A DNA stretch of 64,000 nucleotides, from positions 10,586 through 74,585 of the forward strand of contig JACRCE010000011.1 of the NCBI GenBank assembly GCA_016213015.1, written 5' to 3'. This document shows, in pieces, positions 12,071-48,238 of this stretch. The DNA comes from Deltaproteobacteria bacterium. GTDB taxonomy: Bacteria > Desulfobacterota > GWC2-55-46. How positions within the stretch are numbered: the stretch's first letter is position 1; every line of letters begins with the position of its first letter. The position numbers and the translations under genes were made by a program. The notes under the pieces were generated by a model. The model was not told where the DNA came from and did no database searches. It worked only from the letters and a program-made list of their open reading frames with translations.

Positions 12071-12853
12071 GTGCAAAAAATGAAAAAACAACTTGAAACC
12101 ACGACAATCTTCCTGCTCGCATTCGTTGCGTTTGCATTAGCGGCGTTCATACCGGCTCAGGTTCAGGCACTCCCTACCTTGCAGCTTGACATAGCAAATG
12201 GAGTGTACGACCCTGTGAGCAAGACGATCGTTTCGTCCGCCGACAAATTTACGTTGTATGCATTCCTATTGCCTGGAAAAACTCAGGCGCCGGTAACCGG
12301 CGCATACTATATCTCCGCGGCGCTCGTTGCTACGAATGGCAAGACAATAGGGGCAGGCAACTTCGGCAGCTTCTCCTTCAACGGCGTTCAAAAGAACGTT
12401 ACCAACGATATGGTCTTTGGGACGCCGCCGCTTGAGGCCAATCTGGCATTTGACCCAGGCGATCTTTCCAAACACGGCATATACCCGACGTACTTCAACG
12501 AGTTTTCATTCAAGTTCAACTCCAACAACGAAACGGCTCAATACAACACGCAAGACAGGGCCAAGGCAGGTACGCCGATCAACATCGCGCCGAATCCTAA
12601 CAACGGCAACATGTATTACGCGGCGTTTTCGGTGGATACGACGCTTCTCGCGCCCGGCTATGCCATACATTTCGACCTGTACAACGAGAAGGTCAGACGC
12701 GGGGATACCGATGTAAATCTCTTTGCTCCCTTCTCGCACGACGCTCAGTCAAGGGCAAAGGTGCCGGAGCCTGCCACGGCGCTGTTGATTGGCGCCGGAT
12801 TTGCCGGTCTGTGGCTACATGGCAAAAAACAGAAGGGCACCTCTAAAAATTAG
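12071..12853 (+). CDS. PEP-CTERM sorting-domain secreted protein
   Basis: The ORF has an N-terminal signal peptide and a C-terminus VPEPATALLIGAGFAGLWLHGKKQKG (PEP motif, hydrophobic helix, basic tail). The last residues TSKN and the TAG stop are encoded by the terminal inverted repeat of repeat element B1. Confidence 0.8.
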   Translation: MQKMKKQLETTTIFLLAFVAFALAAFIPAQVQALPTLQLDIANGVYDPVSKTIVSSADKFTLYAFLLPGKTQAPVTGAYYISAALVATNGKTIGAGNFGSFSFNGVQKNVTNDMVFGTPPLEANLAFDPGDLSKHGIYPTYFNEFSFKFNSNNETAQYNTQDRAKAGTPINIAPNPNNGNMYYAAFSVDTTLLAPGYAIHFDLYNEKVRRGDTDVNLFAPFSHDAQSRAKVPEPATALLIGAGFAGLWLHGKKQKGTSKN

Positions 12854-12970
12854 AGATTTTTTCCGCAATCAAGGAATGGCGAAAATAAAAAGTGGAGCAT
12901 ATATGTGAATATGTGAGCATTTTTATTTTAGCCATGACACAGAGCCCGGAAAAAAGATCAATTTTTAGAG
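12842..12970. mobile_element. MITE-like element, family B, copy B1 (intact, ~129 bp)
   Basis: It has imperfect ~24-bp TIRs TCTAAAAATTAGAGATTTTTTCCG ... CCGGAAAAAAGATCAATTTTTAGAG. The interior is homologous to the other B copies. Confidence 0.6.
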
Positions 12971-13074
12971 GTGGCCATAAAATAAGCGCTTGATTTTTAA
13001 GAAATCTGCCGCTATAATGCCCAAAAAGCATGTAGGTTGAAAATCCCGTACTAATAAGGTGAACGGATTAACGA

Positions 13075-22633: not shown

Positions 22634-23680
22634 TTATTCAAGTTTCAATTGCCGGCCCCTTGTCCTCGACTCCACCCTGCCGATTATAGCGCATCCAGCG
22701 CCCTGCGCCACAAGCCGCTTTACAAGCCTTGCACAACTTGCCTTTGGCGCTGAAATCAGAAGACCTCCCGACGTCTGCGGGTCATATCCAAAAAGTTCCA
22801 TCGGCCCGCTCACTCCCGATACACGGACATCCTTTCCAAAAGATGCCCTGTTCCTCTCTAAGCCGCCCGGCCTTGCGGCCTTGTTGCCAACGAGCCGCAT
22901 GGCGGCTTTGAACACGGGCACATCCCCTGCCCTGATTACGATGTTCACGCCGGAGCCTTTGGCCATCTCCATCGCATGGCCAATGAGTCCATAGCCGGTT
23001 ATGTCGGTGCAGGCATTTACCTTGACGCCCGTCATGGACAGGGAAGCCGCTTTGTTCAGCGCCTTCATGCTCTTTATAGCCTCGGATGCGGCTGTGGTTG
23101 AAAGAATCCCGCGCTTCAAGGCGGTCGTTACTATCCCCGTGCCAATGGGTTTCGTGAGTATGAGCACATCCCCGGGACGCGCCGTAGAGTTCCTAATGAC
23201 CTTATCCCTGTCAACGAACCCGGTTACTGAAAGACCATATTTGACCTCGTTGTCTACAATGGAGTGTCCGCCCGCAAGGACCACCCCTGCCTCTTTGAGC
23301 TTTGAAAGACCGCCCTTCAATATACGCTCAAGCACGCCAAGGCCGAGCGTATCTGGAAAGCAGACGATATTGAGCGCAAAGGCGGGCGTGCCGCCCATTG
23401 CATAGATGTCGCTCAGGGCATTTGACGCGGCTATCTGGCCAAAGGTGAACGGGTCGTCAACAACCGGCGGGAAAAAATCCAGCGTCGCAACCACGGCCTT
23501 ATCGCCATGAATTTCATAGACCGCCGCGTCATCGGCCGTGCCGAAACCTACCATAAGCGAAGCGCTTTTTTGAACTGGCAAACGGCGCAGAACCTGCGCC
23601 AGAGGGCTTGCGCCCATCTTGGCCGCTCAACCGGCGCAGCTTGCCCAGTTCGTGAGCTTTATCTTGCGTCCTTGGTTCAA
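22634..23680 (-). CDS. selD: selenide, water dikinase (selenophosphate synthetase), Sec-containing, with a non-ATG (TTG) start and in-frame UGA
   Basis: The track ORF starts at the internal Met codon 23617. Extending upstream in frame gives (TTG at 23680) LNQGRKIKLTNWASCAG-U(TGA at 23629..23627)-AAKMGASPLAQVL..., which aligns with E. coli SelD IRLTQYSHGAGC17GCKISPKVL. The GGTPAFALNIV...LAGGHS motifs follow. Confidence 0.75.
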
Positions 23681-23697
23681 GGCTCAAGCCCTTTCTT

Positions 23698-25629
23698 TCA
23701 TCTCAGTGTTCGCACGTCGCCATTCCTGAGCGTAACGCGCTCCTTGTCAAAATATTCCAGTATCTCTATGGCGAGCTTTCTGCCACAACCGACGATGTCC
23801 CTGAACTCAGCCGCCTTTATGCCGTGCTTTGCCTTTATGTGCTCAATCATGGCAACGCGCGAGGCCGCCTCAGCCTCGACGCGGATATAACTGCCTTCCT
23901 TGAGCTTGACAAGCACACCGGTCTTTTGCAGATACCCCAACACCCGCTTAACGTCACTGTCTTTGAACAAGAGTTTCCCCAGCGCCTCAGTACCGATATG
24001 TCCGAAACCGTCGGCAACGATTGCGGCCCTTAGCGCGCGCTCTATATCGGCGTCAACGCCGGTAAGTTTCAATACCGGCGAATGAGAGGCCATTGCAACG
24101 AGATGCCCGTCCTTTTTCAAGACCTTCCGCTCGACAAGCGAGGCAATGACATCCGCAAAAAACTCATTTTTACGGTCTTTCATCCGCATTGCCGCATAGA
24201 GTGTTTCTTCATCAAGCCCGGCTTGAACGGGGCGCGCCGTATGATGCGCTGACAGAGCGCCAAGCGTCTTGCCCTCTATCTCCTCGGCCCATTTATTGCT
24301 TGCCGCCCAATGACCGATTACCTTGAGAGAGCGCGCAAAATCCTTTTCAGGCGCGCGCTCGTTGAGCATGAGGCCGAGCGTTCGCAAGTCGATTACAACA
24401 ACACTGTCAAGCAGACCGCAAATGACATCAGGCGTATCGTTATTATACAGAAATCCGGCATCCGCAAGACGCGGAGCAAGGGATGGCGACGGATACGGCA
24501 GGACAACAATGCCGCCGCCGATGGTCATGTTCCTTGCCGGGTCTCTCAATATGAATCTGTCCCCCCTTAGCATGGGCAAAGGGGTCTTGAGATACAACCT
24601 GCCAAGCACGGCCTTTTGACGCGCAACGGTAGTCCCGATAAAACGCACCGAGGCGAGCGTCTCGGCCGTGAGGTGATGCACCTTAACGTTTGAAAGGAAT
24701 TTTCCGTCAAAAGATGCCTCCTCCACAAATTCTATAAGGCAGTCCGCCTGAAACCTGTTGGCCGGCGAAGCGTTGAAAAAGGCCGCGAGTTCCTTGGAAC
24801 ATACCATAAAACCCCTGCGAACGTCCTTATGTTCAACGCCGGACAGGTTCAGGGCAACACGCTGTCCGGTACGCGCCGCGTACGCGTCCTTATGTGTGCT
24901 TTGTATGCCGCGCACCCTGACATGAGCGCCGGTCGGAAATATCATTGCCTCATCGCCCTTTTTGATCGAGCCTGACGCAACCGTGCCTGTAACGACCGCT
25001 CCAAACCCCTTTACCGCGAATGAACGGTCTATCGGCAGTCTGAACGGAACGTCATCGGAATCTCTAACAGACCTTTCAACGTATCCGGCGATCAGCGCCT
25101 TGAGTTCCTCAATCCCCTGCCCGGTGCGCGTTGACGTGGAGCACACGGGGGACACTGAAAGCGTTGTGCCTTTTACAAGCGCCTCGATGTCGCGTTTAAC
25201 CGCCTTCAAACGCTCGCCGGTTGCGAGGTCGGCCTTCGTTATGACGAATATCGCGCCCCTTATGCCGAGGAGCCTGATTATCTCAAGGTGCTCCCTTGTC
25301 TGCGGCATCACGCCGTCATCCACGGCCACGCACACGAGGGCAAGGTCGATCCCCGTCGCGCCCGCGAGCATGTTGCGTATGAACCGCTCATGCCCAGGCA
25401 CGTCGACTATGGCGATGCGCGCAAGGCCGCGTCGGGTTTGAACGTCCGTGTGTGCGAAGCCCAAGTCAATGGAGATGCCGCGCCTCTTCTCCTCTGCAAG
25501 AGAGTCCGTGTCCATGCCGGTCAAAGCCCTCACGAGCGCGGTCTTGCCGTGGTCGATATGCCCGGCAGTGCCAAGGGTGAAGGTCAAAGGGATTGGACTA
25601 TCCGATGTTTTGTCTGATGATTGCATCAT
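23698..25629 (-). CDS. selB: selenocysteine-specific translation elongation factor
   Basis: The ORF has [11 protein letters not shown] and DVPGHERF G-domain motifs and a long C-terminal extension typical of SECIS-binding winged-helix domains. The probable start is ATG 25629 or 25626; the track uses TTG 25656. Confidence 0.85.
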
Positions 25630-25707
25630 GGCAATTATGTGGGTCTTTCCAAACAAGGCGTCTTATAAAAATATCTTGTCCGCGTCGAGTTGTCCAGCCC
25701 TAAGTAA

Positions 25708-25787
25708 GACGGTTATCTGTGGACGGTTATCGGTTTAAGGATAATTATTCTTTCACCTGCACCGATAATTGATAACCGATAACCGTC
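25708..25787. repeat. palindromic intergenic repeat, family D, copy D1 (GGTTATCGG / CCGATAACC arms)
   Basis: The sequence is gacGGTTATCtgtggacGGTTATCGGTTTAAGGATAATTATTCTTTCACCtgcaCCGATAAttGATAACCGATAACCgtc. Confidence 0.65.
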
Positions 25788-25904
25788 TTTGCTGATTTTA
25801 CAGACCGGCCTTTGTGTGGTAGGATTGAGCATTCGATCGGCATAACTCAAACTGTAAGCACACCGGACAAACCTGACGGCTTGGATAAAGGATAACAAAT
25901 TATT

Positions 25905-27608
25905 ATGGCTAATATACTTTTTGAACCCGGTTCCCCATCTTTCATGGATCTCATTGGAAACGGCAAGATACACGTCGTTCCCAGATACCAGAGGGATTAT
26001 TCGTGGAATTATGAAGAATGGGATGATCTATGGAATGACATTGAAGGCATTAAAACCGAAAAGATACATTATATGGGTTACGTGGTTTTGCAAAAAACAG
26101 ATGACCCGCTGAAATTTTTGGTTATAGACGGCCAACAAAGAATAACCACGTTAAGCATTCTGGCGCTTGGCGTTATCAAGGTATTGGAAGACTGGGTCGA
26201 GCAAGGCGTGGACGCGGCCAACAACAAAAGAAGGATTGCAATTCTTTCGGATAAATTTATCGGATTTACTCCAGCCGCGTCTCTCATGCCTGTAAGCAAG
26301 TTACACCTTAACCGCAACAATGACGGCTTTTATAAAAGTTATTTGATACGGCGGCGCAAACCAACGGCGATTGGAAAGTTGAAGCCGTCGGAAAAAAAGA
26401 TGTGGAGGGCATTCGAGTTCTTTTGCGATAAATTGAAAAAAAGATTCGATGACGATAAGGACGGGGCAACGCTTTCGGACTTTCTGGAAACGACCATTTC
26501 AATGAATCTTGTCTTTACCTCTATTACGGTAGGAAATGATCTGAATGCCTATAAAGTATTTGAGACTCTGAATGCAAGGGGCGTCAAACTTTCAACAGGA
26601 GACCTGATTAAAAACTATCTGTTTGCCGAGGTGGCAAAAACAAGCGAGCATGATCTGGATGAAGCGGAAAGACAATGGCAAAGGATAAACGACATCCTGC
26701 AACAGATCGAACTGCCTGTATTTTTAAGGCACTATTGGAATTCAGCTCATACATTGGAACGAAAAAATACCCTTTACAAAGCCCTGAATAGCGAAGTAAG
26801 AGGCGCCGCCGCCGTATTTAATCTACTTGGGGACATGGATAAGCTGGCTCTTGTTTATACGGCACTTGACAAACCATCCGATACCTTATGGAGCAAGGAA
26901 CAAGCCGTCCTTATAGAAGAACTGTCTTTAGTCAGTAGAACACAGCCTTTTCCTTTATTGCTGGCCGCTTACAAGCATATAAAGCCGTTAGATGAGGCGG
27001 AATTTACCAAGATAATAAGGGATTTAGTTGTCGTGTCTTTTCGTTATAATACCGTCAGCGGATTGAATCCCAATACACAGGAAGAAGCATATAACAAAAC
27101 GGCTATTGGTATCAGTAAGGGAACGTATAAAACCGCGCGCGACGTGTTTAACGGTTACACAAAGGAATTATATGTGGCTGATGAGAAATTTGAAAACGAC
27201 TTTACCTACATGACAATGAACACCACGCGCAATAAAACACTGGCAAGGTATCTTTTATGCAAAATGGAAAGACAACTCTCCGCCATACCGGTTGATTGGA
27301 ACGACAGTAAAGTTACCATTGAACATATACTTCCTGAAAATCCCAATTCCGAATGGGAAAAATGGTTCGACGCTGAACAACAGAATGAAAGCATCTACCG
27401 TATAGGCAACCTTACCTTGCTGGAAACAGGCAAAAACAAAGATTGCGGAAATAAGCTTTTTGCCGAAAAAAAAGACATCTATGCGACAAGTCAATACCTG
27501 CTTACCAAAAACAAAACATGCTTTAACGAATGGAAGCCTGAAGTCTTATTAAGAAGACAGCAAGGGATGGCCTCTCTTGCTAAAACCGTTTGGAAGGTTC
27601 AGTATTAA
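25905..27608 (+). CDS. DUF262/DUF1524 protein (GmrSD-like type IV restriction / ParB-like NTPase + His-Me-finger nuclease)
   Basis: The N-terminal motifs are VPRYQRDYSW and IDGQQRITT. The C-terminal motif is TIEHILPEN...RIGNLTLLETGKN. GC content is markedly lower (~40-45 %) than the ~60 % of flanking genes. Confidence 0.75.
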   Translation: MANILFEPGSPSFMDLIGNGKIHVVPRYQRDYSWNYEEWDDLWNDIEGIKTEKIHYMGYVVLQKTDDPLKFLVIDGQQRITTLSILALGVIKVLEDWVEQGVDAANNKRRIAILSDKFIGFTPAASLMPVSKLHLNRNNDGFYKSYLIRRRKPTAIGKLKPSEKKMWRAFEFFCDKLKKRFDDDKDGATLSDFLETTISMNLVFTSITVGNDLNAYKVFETLNARGVKLSTGDLIKNYLFAEVAKTSEHDLDEAERQWQRINDILQQIELPVFLRHYWNSAHTLERKNTLYKALNSEVRGAAAVFNLLGDMDKLALVYTALDKPSDTLWSKEQAVLIEELSLVSRTQPFPLLLAAYKHIKPLDEAEFTKIIRDLVVVSFRYNTVSGLNPNTQEEAYNKTAIGISKGTYKTARDVFNGYTKELYVADEKFENDFTYMTMNTTRNKTLARYLLCKMERQLSAIPVDWNDSKVTIEHILPENPNSEWEKWFDAEQQNESIYRIGNLTLLETGKNKDCGNKLFAEKKDIYATSQYLLTKNKTCFNEWKPEVLLRRQQGMASLAKTVWKVQY

Positions 27609-27635
27609 AAATATTCGACGGTTACGAGCCAATCC

Positions 27636-28397
27636 ATGTCCATCAAACCCAAGGCGGCCTTTTTCTCGTTCACCTGTTGCGAGGGGTGCCAGCTCATGAT
27701 ACTGAGCTGCGAGAAGGAACTGCCGTCCATACTCGAACATATCGAGATAGTCAACTTCCGCGAGGCCATGACCGAACGGAGCGAGGACTATCAGGCGGCC
27801 TTCATCGAAGGCTCCGTCAGCAAACGTGAAGAAATCAAAAAACTCAAAAAGATACGTGAAAAGGCAAAGGTGGTGGTTGCCCTTGGCGCGTGCTCCGCAA
27901 TTGGCGGACTTAATTGCCTTAAAAACCGCTTCCAGATGGACTATCTAAGGAAAGAGGTCTACGGGCAGGACGGCCTGAAGTTCAAGGCCTTTGAAACCAT
28001 ACCGGCAAGGCCCATTGACTCGATAATCCATGTCGACTACTATATACACGGCTGTCCCATACCCAAAAAAGAGTTCCTGTCCGTCCTGACCTCCCTGCTC
28101 ATGGGAAGCGTCCCACGCATCGTGAACCACCCGGTTTGCGTAGACTGCAAGATAGCGGGAAATATCTGCGTGTTCGAGAAGGGCTTAACCTGCCTCGGCC
28201 CGATAACAAGGGCCGGATGCGACGCGGTCTGTATTACTTACGGATGCGTATGCTGGGGATGCAGGGGGCCGGTCGACGACCCGAACACCGCGGCGCATAA
28301 GGAAACGCTTCTAAGACACGGCCTTTCAGCCGATGACGTATCGCTCGCTTTGAGTCTTTACGGCGCTCACAAAACAAAGACTACCTCTAAAAATTAG
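27636..28397 (+). CDS. [NiFe]-hydrogenase small subunit, group-3 (MvhG/VhuG-like)
   Basis: The ORF has the N-terminal FSFTCCEGCQ motif and distal [4Fe-4S] Cys clusters (CVDCK...C, CxxGCxxxC...CWGCRGP). The TAG stop at 28395-28397 lies within the terminus of repeat B2. Confidence 0.85.
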   Translation: MSIKPKAAFFSFTCCEGCQLMILSCEKELPSILEHIEIVNFREAMTERSEDYQAAFIEGSVSKREEIKKLKKIREKAKVVVALGACSAIGGLNCLKNRFQMDYLRKEVYGQDGLKFKAFETIPARPIDSIIHVDYYIHGCPIPKKEFLSVLTSLLMGSVPRIVNHPVCVDCKIAGNICVFEKGLTCLGPITRAGCDAVCITYGCVCWGCRGPVDDPNTAAHKETLLRHGLSADDVSLALSLYGAHKTKTTSKN

Positions 28398-28654
28398 GGA
28401 AGCTCTGATTAATTCGCCAATCCGTCATTCTCGCTCCGCGAAGCAATCTCGTCTTCAAGGAAATCAATAAGTTACGAGATTGCCGCGCCGCAAAAGCGCG
28501 GCTCGCAATGACAAATAAGAATTAATCAGAGCTTCCTTAGATAGTTTTCCCGAGGTCAAGGAAGGGCGAAAATAAAAAGCGTAGCATATATGCAATATGT
28601 GAGCATTTTTATTTTAGCCATGACGCAGAGATCGGGAAAAATAGCAATTTTTAA
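28385..28654. mobile_element. family-B MITE-like element copy B2 carrying a nested family-A MITE
   Basis: The B TIRs are cctctaaaaattag ... gggaaaaatagcaatttttaa. The interior is homologous to B1 (agcatatatgcaatatgtgagcatttttattttagccatgac). Confidence 0.6.
28398..28536 (+). mobile_element. MITE family A, copy A1 (139 bp)
   Basis: It has perfect 17-bp TIRs GGAAGCTCTGATTAATT / AATTAATCAGAGCTTCC and is flanked by a 4-bp direct duplication TTAG (28394-28397 and 28537-28540). Confidence 0.8.
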
Positions 28655-29944
28655 ATGAAAAAAGACCTCCACATAAAGATAGATGAAATAACCCGCGTCG
28701 AGGGACACGGCAACGTGGTCATTGACGTAAAGAAGGGCGTGGTTAAGGATGTCGCTCTTGAGATAATCGAGTCCCCCCGGTTTTTCGAGATGATGTTAAG
28801 GGGCAGAAGATACGACGAGGCACACCACATCATGTCGCGCATCTGCGGCATCTGCGCGGTGAGCCATACGTCGGCCTCTCTCAAGGCCATAGAGTCGGCA
28901 ATGGGCATTCGCATCTCAAGGCAGGCGACGCTATTGAGGAAACTCGCCTTTGCGGGCGAGATGCTTCAGAGCCATATACTGCATCTGTACTTTCTCGTAT
29001 TCCCTGACTTTTTAGGCGAAGGCTCGATAGTGCCGATATTGAAGACCCATCCTGAGATAGCAAGGAAGGGTCTTGAACTCAAGAGGCTCGCCAACGAGAT
29101 ATGCGCCGTCGTGGCCGGCAGGCACATCCACCCGATATCGCTCGCCCCCGGAGGCGTGGCGCATCTGCCGACCGCTCAGGAACTTAAAAAACTCCGCTCC
29201 AGCCTCGATGCCTCCTTTGACGACCTTGAGTTCACTTATGACCTGCTCTCAAAGGTTCACGTGCCGGAGTTCGAGAAAAGGCGCGACTTCGTGTCGCTGA
29301 AGTCGCGGGGAGAGTACGGCGCTTACGCCGGAGAGCCGGCATCAAGCGAGGGCTACGCCATTACGGCCAAGACCTACACGAAAAAGATTCGGGAGTACAC
29401 GGTTGCCCACTCCGCGGCAAAGCAGGCAAGAAGTCCGAAGGGCGCCTTCATGGTAGGCGCCCTCGCAAGGGTCAACAACAACTGGAAAAGGCTCTCACAG
29501 CGCTCGCGCGCTATAGCCGAGAAGGCCGGATTGAGGCCGCCATGCTTCAATCCGTTTCACAACAACACGGCCCAACTCGTGGAATGTTTTCAGATGACCG
29601 GGGACGCGATACGGATGATAGACGCCCTGCTTGAGGCCGGATTGAAGCCGGAGCCGTTGAAAAAACCCAAGGGATGGGGCATCGGCATAGGCATCGTCGA
29701 GGCCCCGCGAGGGACGCTCTACCACGAATACCGGATAAACAGGGACGGCTTTGTCGAGGCCGCGGAGTGCGTCATACCCACGGCGCAGAATCTAAGGGCT
29801 ATCGAAGAAGACCTCCGCGCCTTCGTGCCGCTCATAATGGATAAGCCGAAAGAGGAGATACGGCGTATAGTGGAGACGCTCGTAAGGGCCTATGACCCGT
29901 GCATATCGTGTTCGACGCATATAATGGACGTAAGATTCGTTTAG
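28655..29944 (+). CDS. [NiFe]-hydrogenase large subunit, group-3
   Basis: The ORF has the N-terminal RICGICAVSH motif and the C-terminal DPCISCSTH motif, followed by a short IMDVRFV tail. The first Cys is Cys and not Sec, so this is NiFe, not NiFeSe. The ATG directly abuts the end of MITE B2 and no SD is visible. Confidence 0.9.
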   Translation: MKKDLHIKIDEITRVEGHGNVVIDVKKGVVKDVALEIIESPRFFEMMLRGRRYDEAHHIMSRICGICAVSHTSASLKAIESAMGIRISRQATLLRKLAFAGEMLQSHILHLYFLVFPDFLGEGSIVPILKTHPEIARKGLELKRLANEICAVVAGRHIHPISLAPGGVAHLPTAQELKKLRSSLDASFDDLEFTYDLLSKVHVPEFEKRRDFVSLKSRGEYGAYAGEPASSEGYAITAKTYTKKIREYTVAHSAAKQARSPKGAFMVGALARVNNNWKRLSQRSRAIAEKAGLRPPCFNPFHNNTAQLVECFQMTGDAIRMIDALLEAGLKPEPLKKPKGWGIGIGIVEAPRGTLYHEYRINRDGFVEAAECVIPTAQNLRAIEEDLRAFVPLIMDKPKEEIRRIVETLVRAYDPCISCSTHIMDVRFV

Positions 29945-29953
29945 AGGGAAAGA

Positions 29954-31075
29954 TTGCGTATAAACATCGCTAAAGCGCCGCTCCTTGAGCGGATACTCCA
30001 GAGGCAGATAGTCTCTTCCAAATCCGAAGACGTTGACCTCAAGGCCGTGCTCCGGGAGATACTCCTTCGGGCAAACAGGTTCGTGCCCTCGGAGTCGGGT
30101 TCCATACTGCTTGACGCGCCCGCCGGGGATGAAACCGACAAGGCGCTTGCCAAGCTCTACTTTGTGGCATGCTTCGGCAAGGGTTCCGTCGCTCTCGTCA
30201 ATACCACGCTGCCTTCAAGCACGGGTATAGCGGGCAGGACATACTCGACAGGAAAGCCGTACATAAGCAAAAAGGTGTCCAGAGACAAATGCTTCTACCC
30301 GGGCCTCGACAAAAAAACAAAGTTCTGCACGAAGTCCATCGTATGCGCGCCGATAAAATTGAAAAAACATACAATCGGCGTAATAGAGTTGATCAACAGG
30401 CTCTCCGACATAAACTACACGTCAAAGGATTTGTCGCTCCTTAAGATATTCGCCGAATACACCTCAAAGCTCATCCAGAACGCGCTTGACGCAAAGACCT
30501 TCGAAATACTCTCGAAAAAGGACAACCTCACGTCGCTTTACAACGACCGGTACTTCTACAATCAGCTTACAAAGGAAACGGCGCGCTCAATCAAGCGCGG
30601 GACGGACTTGAGTCTCATCTTCATGGATCTGGACAGGTTCAAGGAGGTCAACGACACCTACGGACACCTTGCCGGAAGCCGGGTGCTGACCGAGGTCGGC
30701 TGTATAATAAAAGATACGCTTCCCACCGCTGATTCAAGAGGCATTCGCTACGGCGGGGACGAATACGTCGTGATACTGCCGGGGTTGAATCTCGACGAGG
30801 CGGCCGACTACGCGGAAAAACTGAGAATGGCCATTCAGGAGTTCACGTTCCTGACGAAAAGGCTCCACGCAAACGCCAAACCCATAATGCTCAAGGGTCA
30901 TATAACAAGCTCGATCGGGGCGGCCTCTCTCATGGAGAACGTGGAGGAGGCCGGCAGCGTCAACGAGATACGCGACAACCTGATAAAACAGGCGGACACG
31001 GCCATGTACAAGTCCAAACAGAACGGCAGAAACCTTATAACAGTTGCCCCGGCCGGAGGCAAAAAGAAAAGCTGA
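29954..31075 (+). CDS. GAF-domain diguanylate cyclase (GGDEF)
   Basis: The ORF has a TTG start with gagggaaag upstream. An N-terminal GAF domain is followed by RYGGDEYVV (intact GGDEF-type A-site). The upstream inhibitory-site motif RxxD is not clearly seen. Confidence 0.8.
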   Translation: MRINIAKAPLLERILQRQIVSSKSEDVDLKAVLREILLRANRFVPSESGSILLDAPAGDETDKALAKLYFVACFGKGSVALVNTTLPSSTGIAGRTYSTGKPYISKKVSRDKCFYPGLDKKTKFCTKSIVCAPIKLKKHTIGVIELINRLSDINYTSKDLSLLKIFAEYTSKLIQNALDAKTFEILSKKDNLTSLYNDRYFYNQLTKETARSIKRGTDLSLIFMDLDRFKEVNDTYGHLAGSRVLTEVGCIIKDTLPTADSRGIRYGGDEYVVILPGLNLDEAADYAEKLRMAIQEFTFLTKRLHANAKPIMLKGHITSSIGAASLMENVEEAGSVNEIRDNLIKQADTAMYKSKQNGRNLITVAPAGGKKKS

Positions 31076-31547: not shown

Positions 31548-32270
31548 CTATGTATGCCCCTTGAGCCTCTCAAGCGCCTCCTTTGCGGCCATCTGCTCGG
31601 CCTCCTTCTTGGACCCGGCGACGCCCCTTCCTTGTCGGAGTCCGTTTATCACGACCTCCACCTCAAAGGTCTTTTTATGGGACGCGCCGGTCTCGTTGAT
31701 AAGGACATACTTGGGGGCCTGCTTATAGAGGCTCTGAACAAGCTCCTGCAGAGCGGGCTTATAATCGAAATGACCTTGTCCGCCCTGCGCCTGCTCGATT
31801 GACGCTGAAAAAAGGGACGCAACATAAGAGGCGGTCAGGTCATGGCCGCGCTCGAAATACACGGCGGCGATGAACGCCTCGAACACGCCGGCGAGTATGG
31901 CCGTATTCTCCCTGCCATTGGATGCGCGTTCTCCCTTGCCGAGGAGCAGGTACTTGCCGAGCTTCATCGCCTTTGCCGTCTCGGCAAGCGCCCTTCTGTT
32001 TACAAGCCGCGCGCGAAGGCGCGTCAGTTCGCCCTCGTTGACGGCGGGGAACATCCGGTAGAGCGTCTCGCTTATGGCCGCGCTCAGGATAGCGTCCCCA
32101 AAAAATTCCAGCCTTTCGTTGCACTCCAGCGCGGCAAACCCCAAGGCGCCCGGCTCGTTAAGGAATGACTTGTGGGTAAAGGCGGTCTTCAAGATCGCTG
32201 TTGACGCAAACCCGAAAGGCAGGGTTGAGATGAACTCGGCCATGGATTCGTCGAACGTCTTGTTATTCAT
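31548..32270 (-). CDS. rnc: ribonuclease III
   Basis: The ORF has the ERLEFFGDA catalytic signature and a C-terminal dsRBD (KKTFEVEVVINGL...GSKKEAEQMAAKEALERL). The ATG is at 32270; the track ORF extends further to 32441. Confidence 0.9.
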   Translation of the reverse strand: MNNKTFDESMAEFISTLPFGFASTAILKTAFTHKSFLNEPGALGFAALECNERLEFFGDAILSAAISETLYRMFPAVNEGELTRLRARLVNRRALAETAKAMKLGKYLLLGKGERASNGRENTAILAGVFEAFIAAVYFERGHDLTASYVASLFSASIEQAQGGQGHFDYKPALQELVQSLYKQAPKYVLINETGASHKKTFEVEVVINGLRQGRGVAGSKKEAEQMAAKEALERLKGHT

Positions 32271-32877
32271 CCAACTCCCTGAGCACGGATTGTATATGCG
32301 CCCATGTATCGTTCCTGAGCGATTTTTGTTTGTCAAGCGCGTCAAGGCCGTGCGTAAGCATGAGCCTTGCGCCGTTGTAGTCGTAAAAACTTCCGTATCG
32401 AAGGGCCTCGTCATCGAGCAACGCCCTTCCCGCGCATTCACCGAAGGCGACTATAACCCGAAAGGACATGGTTGACAACTCTCTTGCGAGAAAACTTCTG
32501 CACAGCCGGACGCGCTGAAAGGCCGCCTCAAGGCCGCCTTCCGGCGGCGAAGGGCACTTGAAGGCGCATGTTACGTAAACCTTGTCCCTAACCAGTCCTG
32601 ATTTTTCAAGGAGGCTCGCAAGGAGCGCGTCTTCGGATTTATTGCACGACGCGCTCAGCACGATGACCAGTCCTGATACAGCCTCTCCGACGCCATAAAC
32701 CTTGTTTGCGCTCGCGCCTGAGTCGCACAGCGCGCAAGAGGCGATCTCGGCGCGCAATGCGGCCTGAGCGCCTCTTGCACCCTCGCGCCGGATAAAGTTC
32801 ACCCCGGATGAGCGCAAAAGATCAAGAGAGCCGACAAGGCTTGAGAGTATGTCGTTATATTCCCTGATTATATCCAT
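32263..32877 (-). CDS. uracil-DNA glycosylase, family 4
   Basis: The ORF has the family-4 UDG Cys pattern CALCDS...GEAVSGLVIV..., with the ATG at 32877. It overlaps the rnc start by a few nt. Confidence 0.75.
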   Translation of the reverse strand: MDIIREYNDILSSLVGSLDLLRSSGVNFIRREGARGAQAALRAEIASCALCDSGASANKVYGVGEAVSGLVIVLSASCNKSEDALLASLLEKSGLVRDKVYVTCAFKCPSPPEGGLEAAFQRVRLCRSFLARELSTMSFRVIVAFGECAGRALLDDEALRYGSFYDYNGARLMLTHGLDALDKQKSLRNDTWAHIQSVLRELDE

Positions 32878-32880
32878 TAG

Positions 32881-33062
32881 CGCGGTTATCGGTGGACGGT
32901 TATCCGTTATCGGATTAAGGATAAGGAAAACCACCTCACCCTACCCTCTCCCCCTTGGGGAGAGTAGAAAAAAACGAAACTCTTTCTTAGGGAAGCAATT
33001 AATCAGAGCTTCCTTAATTATCTTTTTCCTTCACCGATAACCGTCAACTGATAACCGATAAC
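32881..33062. repeat. family D palindromic repeat, copy D3, expanded by an internal insertion containing a family-A MITE remnant
   Basis: The D arms are gcGGTTATCGGtggacGGTTATCcGTTATCGGaTTAAGGATAA ... TTATCTTTTTCCTTCACCGATAACCgtcaactGATAACCGATAAC. The interior carries the hairpin ctctcccccttggggagag and, at 32991-33013, GGAAGC+AATTAATCAGAGCTTCC, flanked by TTAG/TTAA. Confidence 0.6.
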
Positions 33063-33083
33063 AGCCTTTACATATATGCGGCC

Positions 33084-33956: not shown

Positions 33957-34320
33957 TAAAAATTAGAAATTTTTTTCGAGGTCAAGGAAGGGCGAAAATA
34001 AACTTGTCCTCGTGGTATCTATCGAGCAAAGCGGAGCATATAATTAAGGAAGCTCTGATTAATTCGCCGACCCGTCATTCTCGCTCCGCGAAGCAATCTC
34101 GTCTTCAAGGAAATCAACAACTTAGAGATTGCCGCGCCGCGAAAGCGCGGCTCGCAATGACAAAATAAGAATTAATCAGAGGTTCCTTAATATATGAACA
34201 TTGGGCCAACCGCAAAAGCGCGGTTAGGCCCTGCAAGGAAGCTCACGCTCTCTTTGAAGCCCGTCTTATTGCGCCCTGACGCCCGTAACGTAACAGTCGG
34301 GGAAAATAGCAATTTTTACC
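33957..34320. mobile_element. family-B element copy B3 (long variant) carrying a nested family-A MITE at a different internal site
   Basis: The left TIR is aaaaattagaaatttttttcgaggtcaagg and the right TIR is cggggaaaatagcaatttttacc. Its terminus overlaps the TAA stop of coaBC (34316-34318). Confidence 0.55.
34048..34186 (+). mobile_element. MITE family A, copy A2 (139 bp)
   Basis: The TIRs are GGAAGCTCTGATTAATT / AATTAATCAGAGGTTCC (one mismatch). It is flanked by the 4-bp duplication TTAA (34044-34047 and 34187-34190). Confidence 0.8.
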
Positions 34321-44294: not shown

Positions 44295-44324
44295 AGCCCT
44301 CCTTGCCACATGCGATTATGATAG

Positions 44325-44462
44325 GGAAGGTCTGATTAATTCTTATTTTGTCATTGCGAGCCGCGCTTTCGCGGCGCGGCAATCTCTAAGTTGTTGATTT
44401 CCTTGAAGACGAGATTCTACGCTGCGCGAGAATGACGGGTCGGCGAATTAATCAGAGCTTCC
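44325..44462 (-). mobile_element. MITE family A, copy A4 (138 bp, inverted orientation)
   Basis: The TIRs are GGAAGGTCTGATTAATT / AATTAATCAGAGCTTCC. It is flanked by the 4-bp duplication ATAG (44321-44324 and 44463-44466) and lies about 30 bp upstream of the glyQ start. Confidence 0.8.
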
Positions 44463-47767: not shown

Positions 47768-48238
47768 CCTTTAAAAATTAGGGAGGCTCTGATTAATTCT
47801 TATTTTGTCATTGCGAGCCCAGCACCACTTTGGATTATGAAAGCGTGTTCCTTGGCAAATTCCTTCGTGCAACAAAGTGGTGCTGGGTTGATTTCCTTGA
47901 AGACGAGATTCTACGCTGCGCGAGAATGACGGATCGGCGAATAAATCAGAGCTTCCTTAGATAGTTTTTCCGAGTTCAAGGAAGGGCGAAAATAAACTTG
48001 TCCTCGCGTGTATTTAGCGGGGAAAGCGCAGCATATACGTTAATATGTGAGCATTGGGCTACCTCCCCCATTCCCCCCCTTAGTAAGGGGGGGAATGGGG
48101 GAGGTAGCCTCGGCAAGGAATTGCTCATTTTGAAAGCGCGTCTTATCGCGCCTGCGGCGCGAGCCGACGGGCAACCGATGTATTTTCGCCCTGACACCCG
48201 TAACGCAATCGGTCGGGAAAAATAGCAATCTTTAGAGG
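47768..48238. mobile_element. composite repeat: family-B long variant (B4) with nested A3 and a 53-bp perfect palindrome
   Basis: The B TIRs are cctttaaaaattag ... cgggaaaaatagcaatctttagagg. The interior is homologous to B3. The palindrome is ggctacctcccccattccccccc-ttagtaa-gggggggaatgggggaggtagcc at ~48057-48109. Confidence 0.55.
47782..47956 (+). mobile_element. MITE family A, copy A3 (175 bp; internal hairpin module replaced)
   Basis: The TIRs are GGAGGCTCTGATTAATT / AAATCAGAGCTTCC. The TSD is TTAG (47778-47781 and 47957-47960). The internal hairpin is CCCAGCACCACTTT...AAAGTGGTGCTGGG instead of CCGCGC...GCGCGG. Confidence 0.75.

Follow-up and report, generated by a model that had tools for sequence, protein, structure and literature searches.

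Nested MITEs between the subunit genes of a group-3b-like [NiFe] hydrogenase: probable successive insertions into a former ATGA overlap

Introduction

The small- and large-subunit genes of [NiFe] hydrogenases are normally adjacent or overlapping. In a 64,000-nucleotide stretch of a deltaproteobacterial contig (JACRCE010000011.1; the whole stretch is called the window here), the two genes of such an enzyme are separated by exactly 257 bp (28398..28654). What fills this gap, how did it arise, and does the hydrogenase still work with it in place? A preliminary description of the locus had proposed that two nested mobile elements fill the spacer, that the large-subunit ATG lacks a Shine-Dalgarno sequence and that the operon might be polar or down-regulated. 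[quoted passage not shown] The insertion is a tolerated and fairly ordinary one, MITEs inside operons being well known.

Results

Composition of the spacer

Two MITEs make up the spacer, one of the B family (~28384-28653) and, nested in the left terminus of B, one of the A family (28398-28536). The features of the junction are listed below; L004 is a relative described in the next section.

27636..28397, + strand: small (delta-like) subunit gene, 253 aa; Pfam PF01058 (Oxidored_q6); NCBIfam sulfhyd_HydD
28384..28397, + strand: B left terminus CCTCTAAAAATTAG, possibly from ~28381; holds the small-subunit TAG stop (28395-28397); the same 14-mer ends the open reading frame (ORF) at 12071..12853
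28394..28397, no strand: left copy of the TTAG duplication of A; a single TTAG is present at this site in L004
28398..28536, + strand: A-family MITE, 139 bp; terminal inverted repeats GGAAGCTCTGATTAATTC; predicted long hairpin
28537..28540, no strand: right copy of the TTAG duplication of A, placed by sequence and by comparison with L004
28541..28653, + strand: rest of the B-family MITE, short form; internal hairpin 28545-28638; right terminus ending in TCGGGAAAAATAGCAATTTTTA; the outer GAGG of other copies is absent
28652..28654, + strand: in-frame TAA abutting the large-subunit ATG; excludes an N-terminal extension
28655..29944, + strand: large (alpha-like) subunit gene, 429 aa; Pfam NiFeSe_Hases; Cys type

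B was found to start 5′ of 28398, inside the small-subunit ORF, which corrects its earlier placement; its left terminus encodes the last four codons of the small subunit and the TAG stop. The nesting itself was borne out. Both repeat families recur in the window, and the corresponding site in L004 is empty of A: there B runs uninterrupted as AAAAATTAG joined to ATAGTTTT, and the window has A at that point between the TTAG copies.

The same junction in relatives

Comparison of the locus with related strains, which the preliminary description had called for, revealed three states of the junction. L135 (Logan, SRR22388064; small subunit 87% identical) is syntenic with the window through OsmC, AIRS, selB, small subunit, large subunit, GAF-GGDEF, 4HBT, RNase III and uracil-DNA glycosylase (UDG) genes. 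Its small-subunit gene ends ...AAG ATG AAA TGA and overlaps ATG AAA AAA GAC by 4 nt. L004 is a metagenome-assembled genome (MAG; JBBTCG010000224) with subunits ~91% identical and DNA ~87-88% identical to the window. It carries B at the identical position and in the identical orientation, without A, in a spacer of 292 bp that also holds a private insert of ~140 bp. The right end of B in L004 is atypical as in the window, reading CAATCTTTA followed directly by AATG (CAATYTTTA/AATG, GAGG absent). The window has both B and A.

Overlap of the subunit genes was also seen in other relatives, with spacings of -4 nt in L135, L006 and L010, -8 nt in L011 and -10 nt in L003, in agreement with the general rule cited in the preliminary description. 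More distant MAGs have small/large spacers of 16 and 37 bp (L007 and L008), 101 bp (L009) and 92 bp (L002), the last with an unrelated palindromic insert. The L002 insert (1077-1168) is bounded by imperfect inverted repeats of GTGAACC/GGCCGTG-like units, and similar short GATAACC/GTGAACC-type repeats occur near window positions 32870-32905 and 33030-33065 and upstream of 19015.

Set side by side, the junctions show what order the events in the window lineage would have taken, overlap, then B, then A, because L135 is empty, L004 has B only and the window has B and A. A single B event accounts for both B-bearing junctions because the L004 copy shares its position, orientation and atypical right end with that of the window. 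In the history that we consider probable, B would have landed in the ATGA overlap in an ancestor common to the window and L004 lineages. Its left terminus would have taken the place of the last part of the small-subunit gene and brought a new tail (...SKN) and the TAG stop, and its shortened right terminus would end one base (A, 28654) before the native large-subunit ATG. Later, and in the window lineage only, the IS5-like element A, which duplicates YTAR targets, would have entered the TTAG in the left terminus of B.

L001 (ENA ERZ2470813; large subunit 90% identical) was considered as a further empty site, but its similarity to the window begins only at 28691, and it was set aside for the junction. 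5′ of the equivalent of window position 28691, L001 has a canonical hydB-hydG-hydD arrangement with an ATGA overlap, and its downstream part matches L004 with identical alignment statistics. Two accounts of L001 can be given: a low-coverage (4x) assembly that is chimeric across the conserved RVEGHGN-coding region, or genuine recombination between two 3b paralogues.

Repeats break assemblies, and a repeat-induced misjoin could in principle have produced the whole spacer; the chimeric look of L001 fits such a concern, as does an independent contig, L134 (Logan, SRR12113407), that breaks 13 nt into A. L134 is, however, 100% identical to window positions 26164-28410 and thus confirms the passage from the small-subunit gene through the B terminus to the start of A. 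Because of this independent identity across it, the left junction is not an assembly artefact. L004, from another species, has B contiguous with both subunit genes, and both flanks of the spacer are collinear with L135. The chance that the spacer is an artefact is next to negligible.

The large-subunit start codon and its upstream region

The preliminary description had allowed for a true large-subunit start elsewhere, with a proper ribosome-binding site. ATG 28655 is nevertheless the start on the available sequence criteria: the best 120 homologs are nearly all 429-431 aa long at 100% coverage, the N-terminus MKKDLHIK is common to the relatives, and an in-frame TAA lies immediately upstream. 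That TAA bars any start further upstream, and the next in-frame GTG falls after the conserved RVEGHGN motif, so neither alternative was retained.

The host organism employs Shine-Dalgarno sequences. Among 50 long ORFs, the predicted duplex with the anti-Shine-Dalgarno sequence has a median energy of -5.0 kcal/mol and reaches -4.5 kcal/mol or lower in 52%, compared with 22% of random positions, and GGAGG is frequent. The large-subunit ATG, which abuts the B terminus, has a duplex of only -3.3 kcal/mol, as the earlier observation of a missing Shine-Dalgarno sequence would lead one to expect, and the small-subunit gene one of -2.8 kcal/mol. Contrary to what had been implied, this lack is not an effect of the insertion. 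No Shine-Dalgarno sequence was found upstream of the large-subunit ATG in the window or in the B-free relatives with overlapping genes, and its absence is therefore ancestral; the small-subunit gene has none either.

Translation of the ancestral large-subunit gene presumably depended on termination-reinitiation coupling. Experiments in E. coli and Haloferax show this coupling to break down once the spacer reaches ~20 nt, and post-termination scanning across long spacers seldom, if ever, takes place (PMC10666635). Since coupling fails beyond ~20 nt, we infer that the 257-nt spacer must have abolished it.

The spacer RNA is predicted to fold with -98.6 kcal/mol (z = -6.97) into two hairpins, one from A (28395-28539) and one from B (28545-28638). 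Hairpin A has the UAG stop codon in its base and a predicted perfect stem of ~21 bp. A+U make up 76% of the region between -20 and +13 relative to the AUG, a region that is partly open, with above-average predicted accessibility, and the next codons are AAA AAA. A consensus scan of 25600-30100 detected neither a sigma-70-like promoter nor an intrinsic terminator in the spacer, and an Rfam scan of 27500-29500 gave one chance match (E = 0.77) and nothing real. Because no promoter or terminator was found, the simplest assumption is co-transcription, and the small- and large-subunit genes are probably still transcribed together. The large subunit would then probably be translated by de novo, Shine-Dalgarno-independent initiation on the A/U-rich leader. 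The hairpins, including the 21-bp perfect stem, would be a plausible substrate for RNase III, and a cut there could make the two cistrons independent of each other in stability. Such processing, of the kind associated with Correia elements, is plausible given the long perfect stem and an RNase III gene in the window (31548-32441).

Could the large-subunit and GGDEF genes be driven by an outward promoter in B or A, independently of the small-subunit gene? Correia-type MITEs can make promoters at their ends (PMC2649163), and insertion of a GmrSD gene (25905-27608) may have disturbed the native promoter region. In 28398-28654, however, the consensus scan found no sigma-70-like site; the best manual candidate (ATGACG-17-AGCAAT, 7/12) is weak and is not conserved in L004. 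Separate transcription would also unbalance obligate partner subunits. An outward promoter is very improbable.

Alternatively, the elements may have been co-opted, their hairpins bringing stop codon and AUG together or acting as an RNA switch or processing site, so that large-subunit translation or mRNA stability would depend on the MITEs. The stability of the fold (z = -6.97), the position of the stop codon in the base of hairpin A and the mere ~25-30 unpaired nt left between stop and AUG in the folded state would suit this idea, for which the Correia and ERIC elements provide precedents (PMC2649163, PMC10969869). The 25 nt before the AUG are identical at 24 of 25 positions between the window and L004, with the spacer interior remodelled. 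This terminus is equally conserved in unrelated B copies (e.g., 48213-48238), however, a pattern that suits a signal for transposition but not a role at this locus. No pairing between the two B termini is predicted: juxtaposition of stop and AUG by such pairing was considered and dropped, as the partition function pairs the AUUUUUA before the AUG weakly (~0.6) with 28674-28680 and not with the left terminus. The hairpin content is completely different in the window and L004, and the rarity of long-spacer scanning (PMC10666635) also argues against co-option, which we regard as quite unlikely.

A bolder version has the B terminus, alone or together with the hairpins, domesticated into a translation initiation or processing module that lacks a Shine-Dalgarno sequence and sets the small:large ratio, with the hydrogenase and the GAF-GGDEF protein acting as an H2-responsive cyclic di-GMP (c-di-GMP) unit. 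We consider it decidedly improbable; if true, the MITE insertion would be a regulatory innovation in a previously undescribed clade of sensory hydrogenases and not neutral baggage.

Selection on the hydrogenase genes since the insertion

Since B is common to the window and L004, all of their divergence post-dates its insertion. Between the two, the small-subunit genes have a ratio of nonsynonymous to synonymous divergence (dN/dS) of 0.107 at a dS of 0.51 and the large-subunit genes one of 0.156 at a dS of 0.35, and both ORFs are intact in both genomes. Neighbouring genes gave 0.17 (GGDEF), 0.145 (CoaBC), 0.12 (phospholipase-like) and 0.27 (thioesterase), and the hydrogenase genes compared with B-free L135 gave 0.12-0.17. 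These estimates show purifying selection on what appear to be functional copies of both genes since B arrived, an arrangement compatible with function. Because dN/dS is as low as in the neighbours and in the B-free comparisons, the hydrogenase would still work, and the large subunit would still be made and needed.

A harmful insertion, polar on the large-subunit gene or blocking its translation, with the hydrogenase down-regulated or being lost, would be expected to leave a different record. B has been common to the window and L004 across a dS of ~0.35-0.5 without loss of an ORF in either lineage, dN/dS (0.11 and 0.16, rounded) is not above that of neighbours or B-free comparisons, all metal-site motifs are intact, and a B copy is also tolerated in L010 between hydA and the GGDEF gene. 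What does speak for harm is the destruction of the ancestral ATGA coupling, which requires an overlap or a very short spacer (PMC10666635), together with a large-subunit gene devoid of a Shine-Dalgarno sequence and 257 nt of untranslated, highly structured RNA between the genes. On balance harm is unlikely. The earlier suggestion of a polar or down-regulated operon thus fared differently in its parts: low dN/dS and intact ORFs contradict a polar or decaying operon, and the level of expression may nevertheless have changed.

Several points weigh against a tolerated, two-step insertion as outlined here. The branching of the window, L004 and L135 is close to a trichotomy: nucleotide synapomorphies (28, 29 and 17) do not discriminate, and protein synapomorphies (11 versus 4 and 4) favour the window with L004. 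With L004 and L135 as sister lineages, B would have to have been gained twice or lost cleanly. Purifying selection speaks for function and not for expression level or stoichiometry, and the younger A insertion is lineage specific, so that dN/dS cannot judge its effect. Shine-Dalgarno-independent initiation and RNase III processing are proposed by analogy with other bacteria. B can be delimited only to within a few nt at its ends, it has no match in the plasmid database (distant mode), and no autonomous parent insertion sequence (IS) was found for A or B.

The A and B families

The terminal repeat of A, GGGAAGCTCTGATTAATTC, has nine matches in the window at up to three mismatches, compared with 0.04 expected. 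The arms are 18-21 nt long and 95% complementary (21-nt arms in the inverted-repeat search), and the 139 bp contain no ORF of note on the + strand. Outside the spacer, blastn against the window detected copies at 34048-34186 (94%), 44325-44462 (91%, opposite strand) and 47782-47956, so that the 64 kb hold four complete copies, the spacer one included, besides a 23-bp remnant. The blastn alignments themselves span 34048-34189, 44322-44462 and 47779-47957 for these A copies, and 33963-34318 and 47939-48234 for the long-form B copies.

A metagenome scan for exact matches to the 18-nt terminal repeat returned at least 120 contigs, and A is widespread in sediment metagenomes. Among the matches listed, paired forward and reverse repeats delimit 76 A elements, mostly 130-152 bp long; 39 of these 76 have identical 4-bp flanks (TTAA in 16, CTAA in 8 and TTAG in 6), mostly of the form YTAR, and CTAG also occurs as a flank. 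As judged from its sequence features, the case for A as a MITE is complete: it is short and non-coding, with inverted repeats, a target duplication, an empty site and many copies. No transposase-bearing parent IS for A was found among the matches listed (at least 120 loci), nor was there a match in the plasmid database (distant mode). Two long pairs of A ends, L061 (1673 bp) and L124 (925 bp), were examined as autonomous copies and discarded; L061 encloses an outer-membrane-like ORF and not a transposase. The 23-bp remnant (32991-33013) consists of little beyond the outermost bases of both terminal repeats (GGAAGCAATTAATCAGAGCTTCC). With TTAG on one side and TTAA on the other, this remnant occupies the intergenic region that separates the divergent UDG-like and phospholipase-like genes.

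The other copies of the two elements in the window are as follows.

12840..12971, + strand: uninterrupted short-form B copy, used as reference; blastn 86% over 12850-12967; ends the ORF 12071..12853 with ...TSKN and the stop
33957..34318, + strand: long-form B copy whose central loop holds an A copy (34048-34186, TTAA duplication); not present at the orthologous L001/L004 site
44325..44462, - strand: solitary A copy with an ATAG duplication
47768..48238, + strand: long-form B copy; the TTAG that A occupies in the spacer holds an A copy here too (47782-47956), reversed relative to that of the spacer; further palindromic inserts

B has the terminal inverted repeats CCTCTAAAAATTAG ... CAATTTTTAGAGG, seen in the four window copies and in the copies of L004 and L010; the copy in the hydrogenase spacer is without the outer GAGG at its right end. 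TA borders the B core in 5/5 copies, and the inverted repeat apparently runs further out as GGnnnCCTC/GAGGnnnCC. The idea that B landed in a pre-existing palindrome, CACCTCTAGAGGTG, was abandoned after it gave no window match at up to three mismatches; since this palindrome is missing from the window, the outer CCTC/GAGG is more likely part of B. Under a model with TA duplication, removal of B gives ...TCT AAA TGA overlapping ATG, which is attractive, but L135 (AAG ATG AAA TGA) shows that the extra CTACCTC is element derived, so this reconstruction was not used. Sites empty of B are found in L135 at the hydrogenase junction (the ATGA overlap) and in L001 and L004 at the position of 33957-34318.

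Of the window's four full A copies, all but one sit inside B copies (28394-28540, 34044-34190 and 47778-47960). A has entered the TTAG of the B left end on two occasions, once in each orientation (28398 and 47782), which implies independent insertions into a hot spot. Evidently B offers preferred A/T-rich YTAR targets to A.

The hydrogenase small subunit and a PEP-CTERM protein unrelated to it (12071..12853) both owe their stop and identical ...TSKN tail to the B left terminus (28384-28397 and 12840-12853, respectively). In 5/5 copies (four in the window, one in L010) the B left end faces the 3′ end of an upstream gene on the same strand. The L010 copy (2214-2342; large subunit 66% identical) is a short form located between the large-subunit gene (hydA) and GAF-GGDEF. 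As this copy lies in the same operon, B has struck the operon repeatedly within the group. In the composite at 47768-48238, one hairpin, CCCAGCACCACTTTG...CAAAGTGGTGCTGGG, takes the place of the A core (47820-47890 region) and a second one, GGGCTACCTCCCCCATTCCCCCCC...GGGGGGGAATGGGGGAGGTAGCC, lies inside B (48055-48115 region); these extra palindromes may be additional repeat families.

The enzyme and its gene neighbourhood

Both subunits match the cytosolic, sulfhydrogenase-type group 3b hydrogenases (HydBGDA) best. The best NCBIfam match of the small subunit is sulfhyd_HydD (2e-59), under the curated (equivalog) cutoff, and the large subunit matches ShyA (1e-82) and HydA (1e-78), both likewise under their curated (equivalog) cutoffs. 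In the PDB, the large subunit matches 5yxy (2e-72) and 9nez (~1e-72) over its full length, with MvhA (9e-51) far behind; the top match, 5yxy, is the alpha subunit of a Thermococcus cytosolic NiFe hydrogenase. VhuA likewise scores far lower (1e-45). The sizes of 253 and 429 aa agree with this group, and the L1 motif RICGICAVSH and L2 motif DPCISCSTH (RxCGxCxxxH and DPCxxCxxH patterns) are intact. An exact-sequence lookup returned no record for the window large subunit.

The locus differs from HydBGDA in its subequivalog scores and in having GAF-GGDEF after the large subunit in place of hydB (FeS) and hydG (FAD/NAD(P)), which complete the heterotetramer in group 3b. Neither gene was found in the window by tblastn with the L001 beta and gamma proteins, nor in the flanks of L002-L011 and L135. 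No MvhD or Hdr domains occur among the ~47 window ORFs, as reported earlier, but these were the wrong partners to expect of a group-3b-like enzyme. In its gene content and best matches, the enzyme appears to be a group-3b-like catalytic pair, so described because the HydB and HydG genes are absent, and not an Mvh-like (group 3c) enzyme. Although selB neighbours the hydrogenase, the enzyme is of the Cys type, as first described: the large-subunit ORF is open, with Cys codons in DPCISCSTH and no selenocysteine TGA of the kind expected for [NiFeSe] enzymes.

The gene following the large subunit is a conserved partner in this hydrogenase clade.

29954..31075, + strand: GAF-GGDEF diguanylate-cyclase-type gene, starting 10 nt 3′ of the large-subunit gene

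In the window, L001/L004, L002, L003, L007, L009, L010 and L135 this gene comes after that of the large subunit; in L006 it is found further downstream. The selB gene is divergent and upstream of the hydrogenase in L003/L005, L006, L007, L008 and L135. A clade can thus be delineated with small- and large-subunit genes only, followed by GAF-GGDEF and often with selB divergent upstream (window 27636-31075, L002, L003/L005, L004, L006, L007, L009, L010 and L135). From this conserved gene order, the hydrogenase and GAF-GGDEF could form a candidate H2-linked c-di-GMP module. The arrangement recalls putative group 2c of HydDB, where diguanylate-cyclase-linked hydrogenases are listed only within group 2, but 2c is a different hydrogenase group (PMC5037454).

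Upstream, selB and an adjoining AIRS/AIRS_C protein, possibly the selenophosphate synthetase SelD, occupy 22634-25656. Between selB and the small-subunit gene sits a GmrSD-type restriction gene (PF03235 and PF07510; 25905-27608). This gene is missing in L135 and L003, where the gap between selB and the hydrogenase is non-coding (227 bp in L135, ~155 bp in L003), and homology between the window and L004 resumes at 27605, at the GmrSD stop codon. The GmrSD gene probably displaced or separated the native hydrogenase promoter.

Discussion

The value of this locus lies in a cleanly reconstructed series of three states, the ATGA overlap, B, and B with A. It suggests that a heterodimeric metalloenzyme can lose translational coupling, gain 257-292 nt of structured RNA between its cistrons and stay under normal purifying selection. 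As such it is a natural test case for the weight of coupling in subunit stoichiometry and for how Shine-Dalgarno-less starts work in these bacteria. It also exposes a conserved pairing of hydrogenase and GGDEF genes that is worth separate study.

A and B are apparently undescribed MITE families of a known kind, with no sequence in common with the Chunjie, Correia or ERIC elements. For A, the likely source of transposase is the IS5 family, which shares with A the 4-bp YTAR duplication that is a trait of IS5 (PMC5009759). The difference is that the loci examined and the plasmids yielded no transposase-bearing copy with A ends. IS5 ends likewise begin GGAAGG and would resemble those of A.

Correia elements (Correia repeat enclosed elements [CREE]) of Neisseria are ~100-150 bp long and co-transcribed with their neighbours; RNase III binds or cuts the hairpins, which alter the expression of adjacent genes (PMC2649163, PMC10969869). 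They have terminal inverted repeats and TA ends, as B does. They differ in sequence from A and B, their promoter-like ends have no counterpart detected in the window, and RNase III processing in the window is putative. In Yersinia and other enterobacteria, the hairpins and RNase E sites of ERIC/IRU (enterobacterial repetitive intergenic consensus/intergenic repeat unit) elements modulate the levels of flanking mRNA segments (PMC10969869). These are palindromes between cistrons or at gene 3′ ends, like the window elements; they belong to a different family in different hosts.

The closest precedent for the spacer is Chunjie, a MITE from Geobacter uraniireducens Rf4, which was reportedly inserted in the pst operon without disturbing it and has 21-bp terminal repeats, 9-bp direct repeats and RNA folds of ~-98 to -130 kcal/mol (Chen et al. 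2008, Genetics 179:2291, as relayed in PMC3184786 and PMC10969869). Chunjie is like the window MITEs in being deltaproteobacterial, located inside an operon, rich in A+T and represented by numerous copies that vary in size, and its range of folding energies takes in the -98.6 kcal/mol of the window spacer. The target repeats differ, 9 bp for Chunjie compared with the 4-bp YTAR of A and at most TA for B, and the sequences are unrelated. The window further contrasts with Chunjie in having two families, one nested in the other, placed exactly in the stop/start overlap between the subunits of one enzyme.

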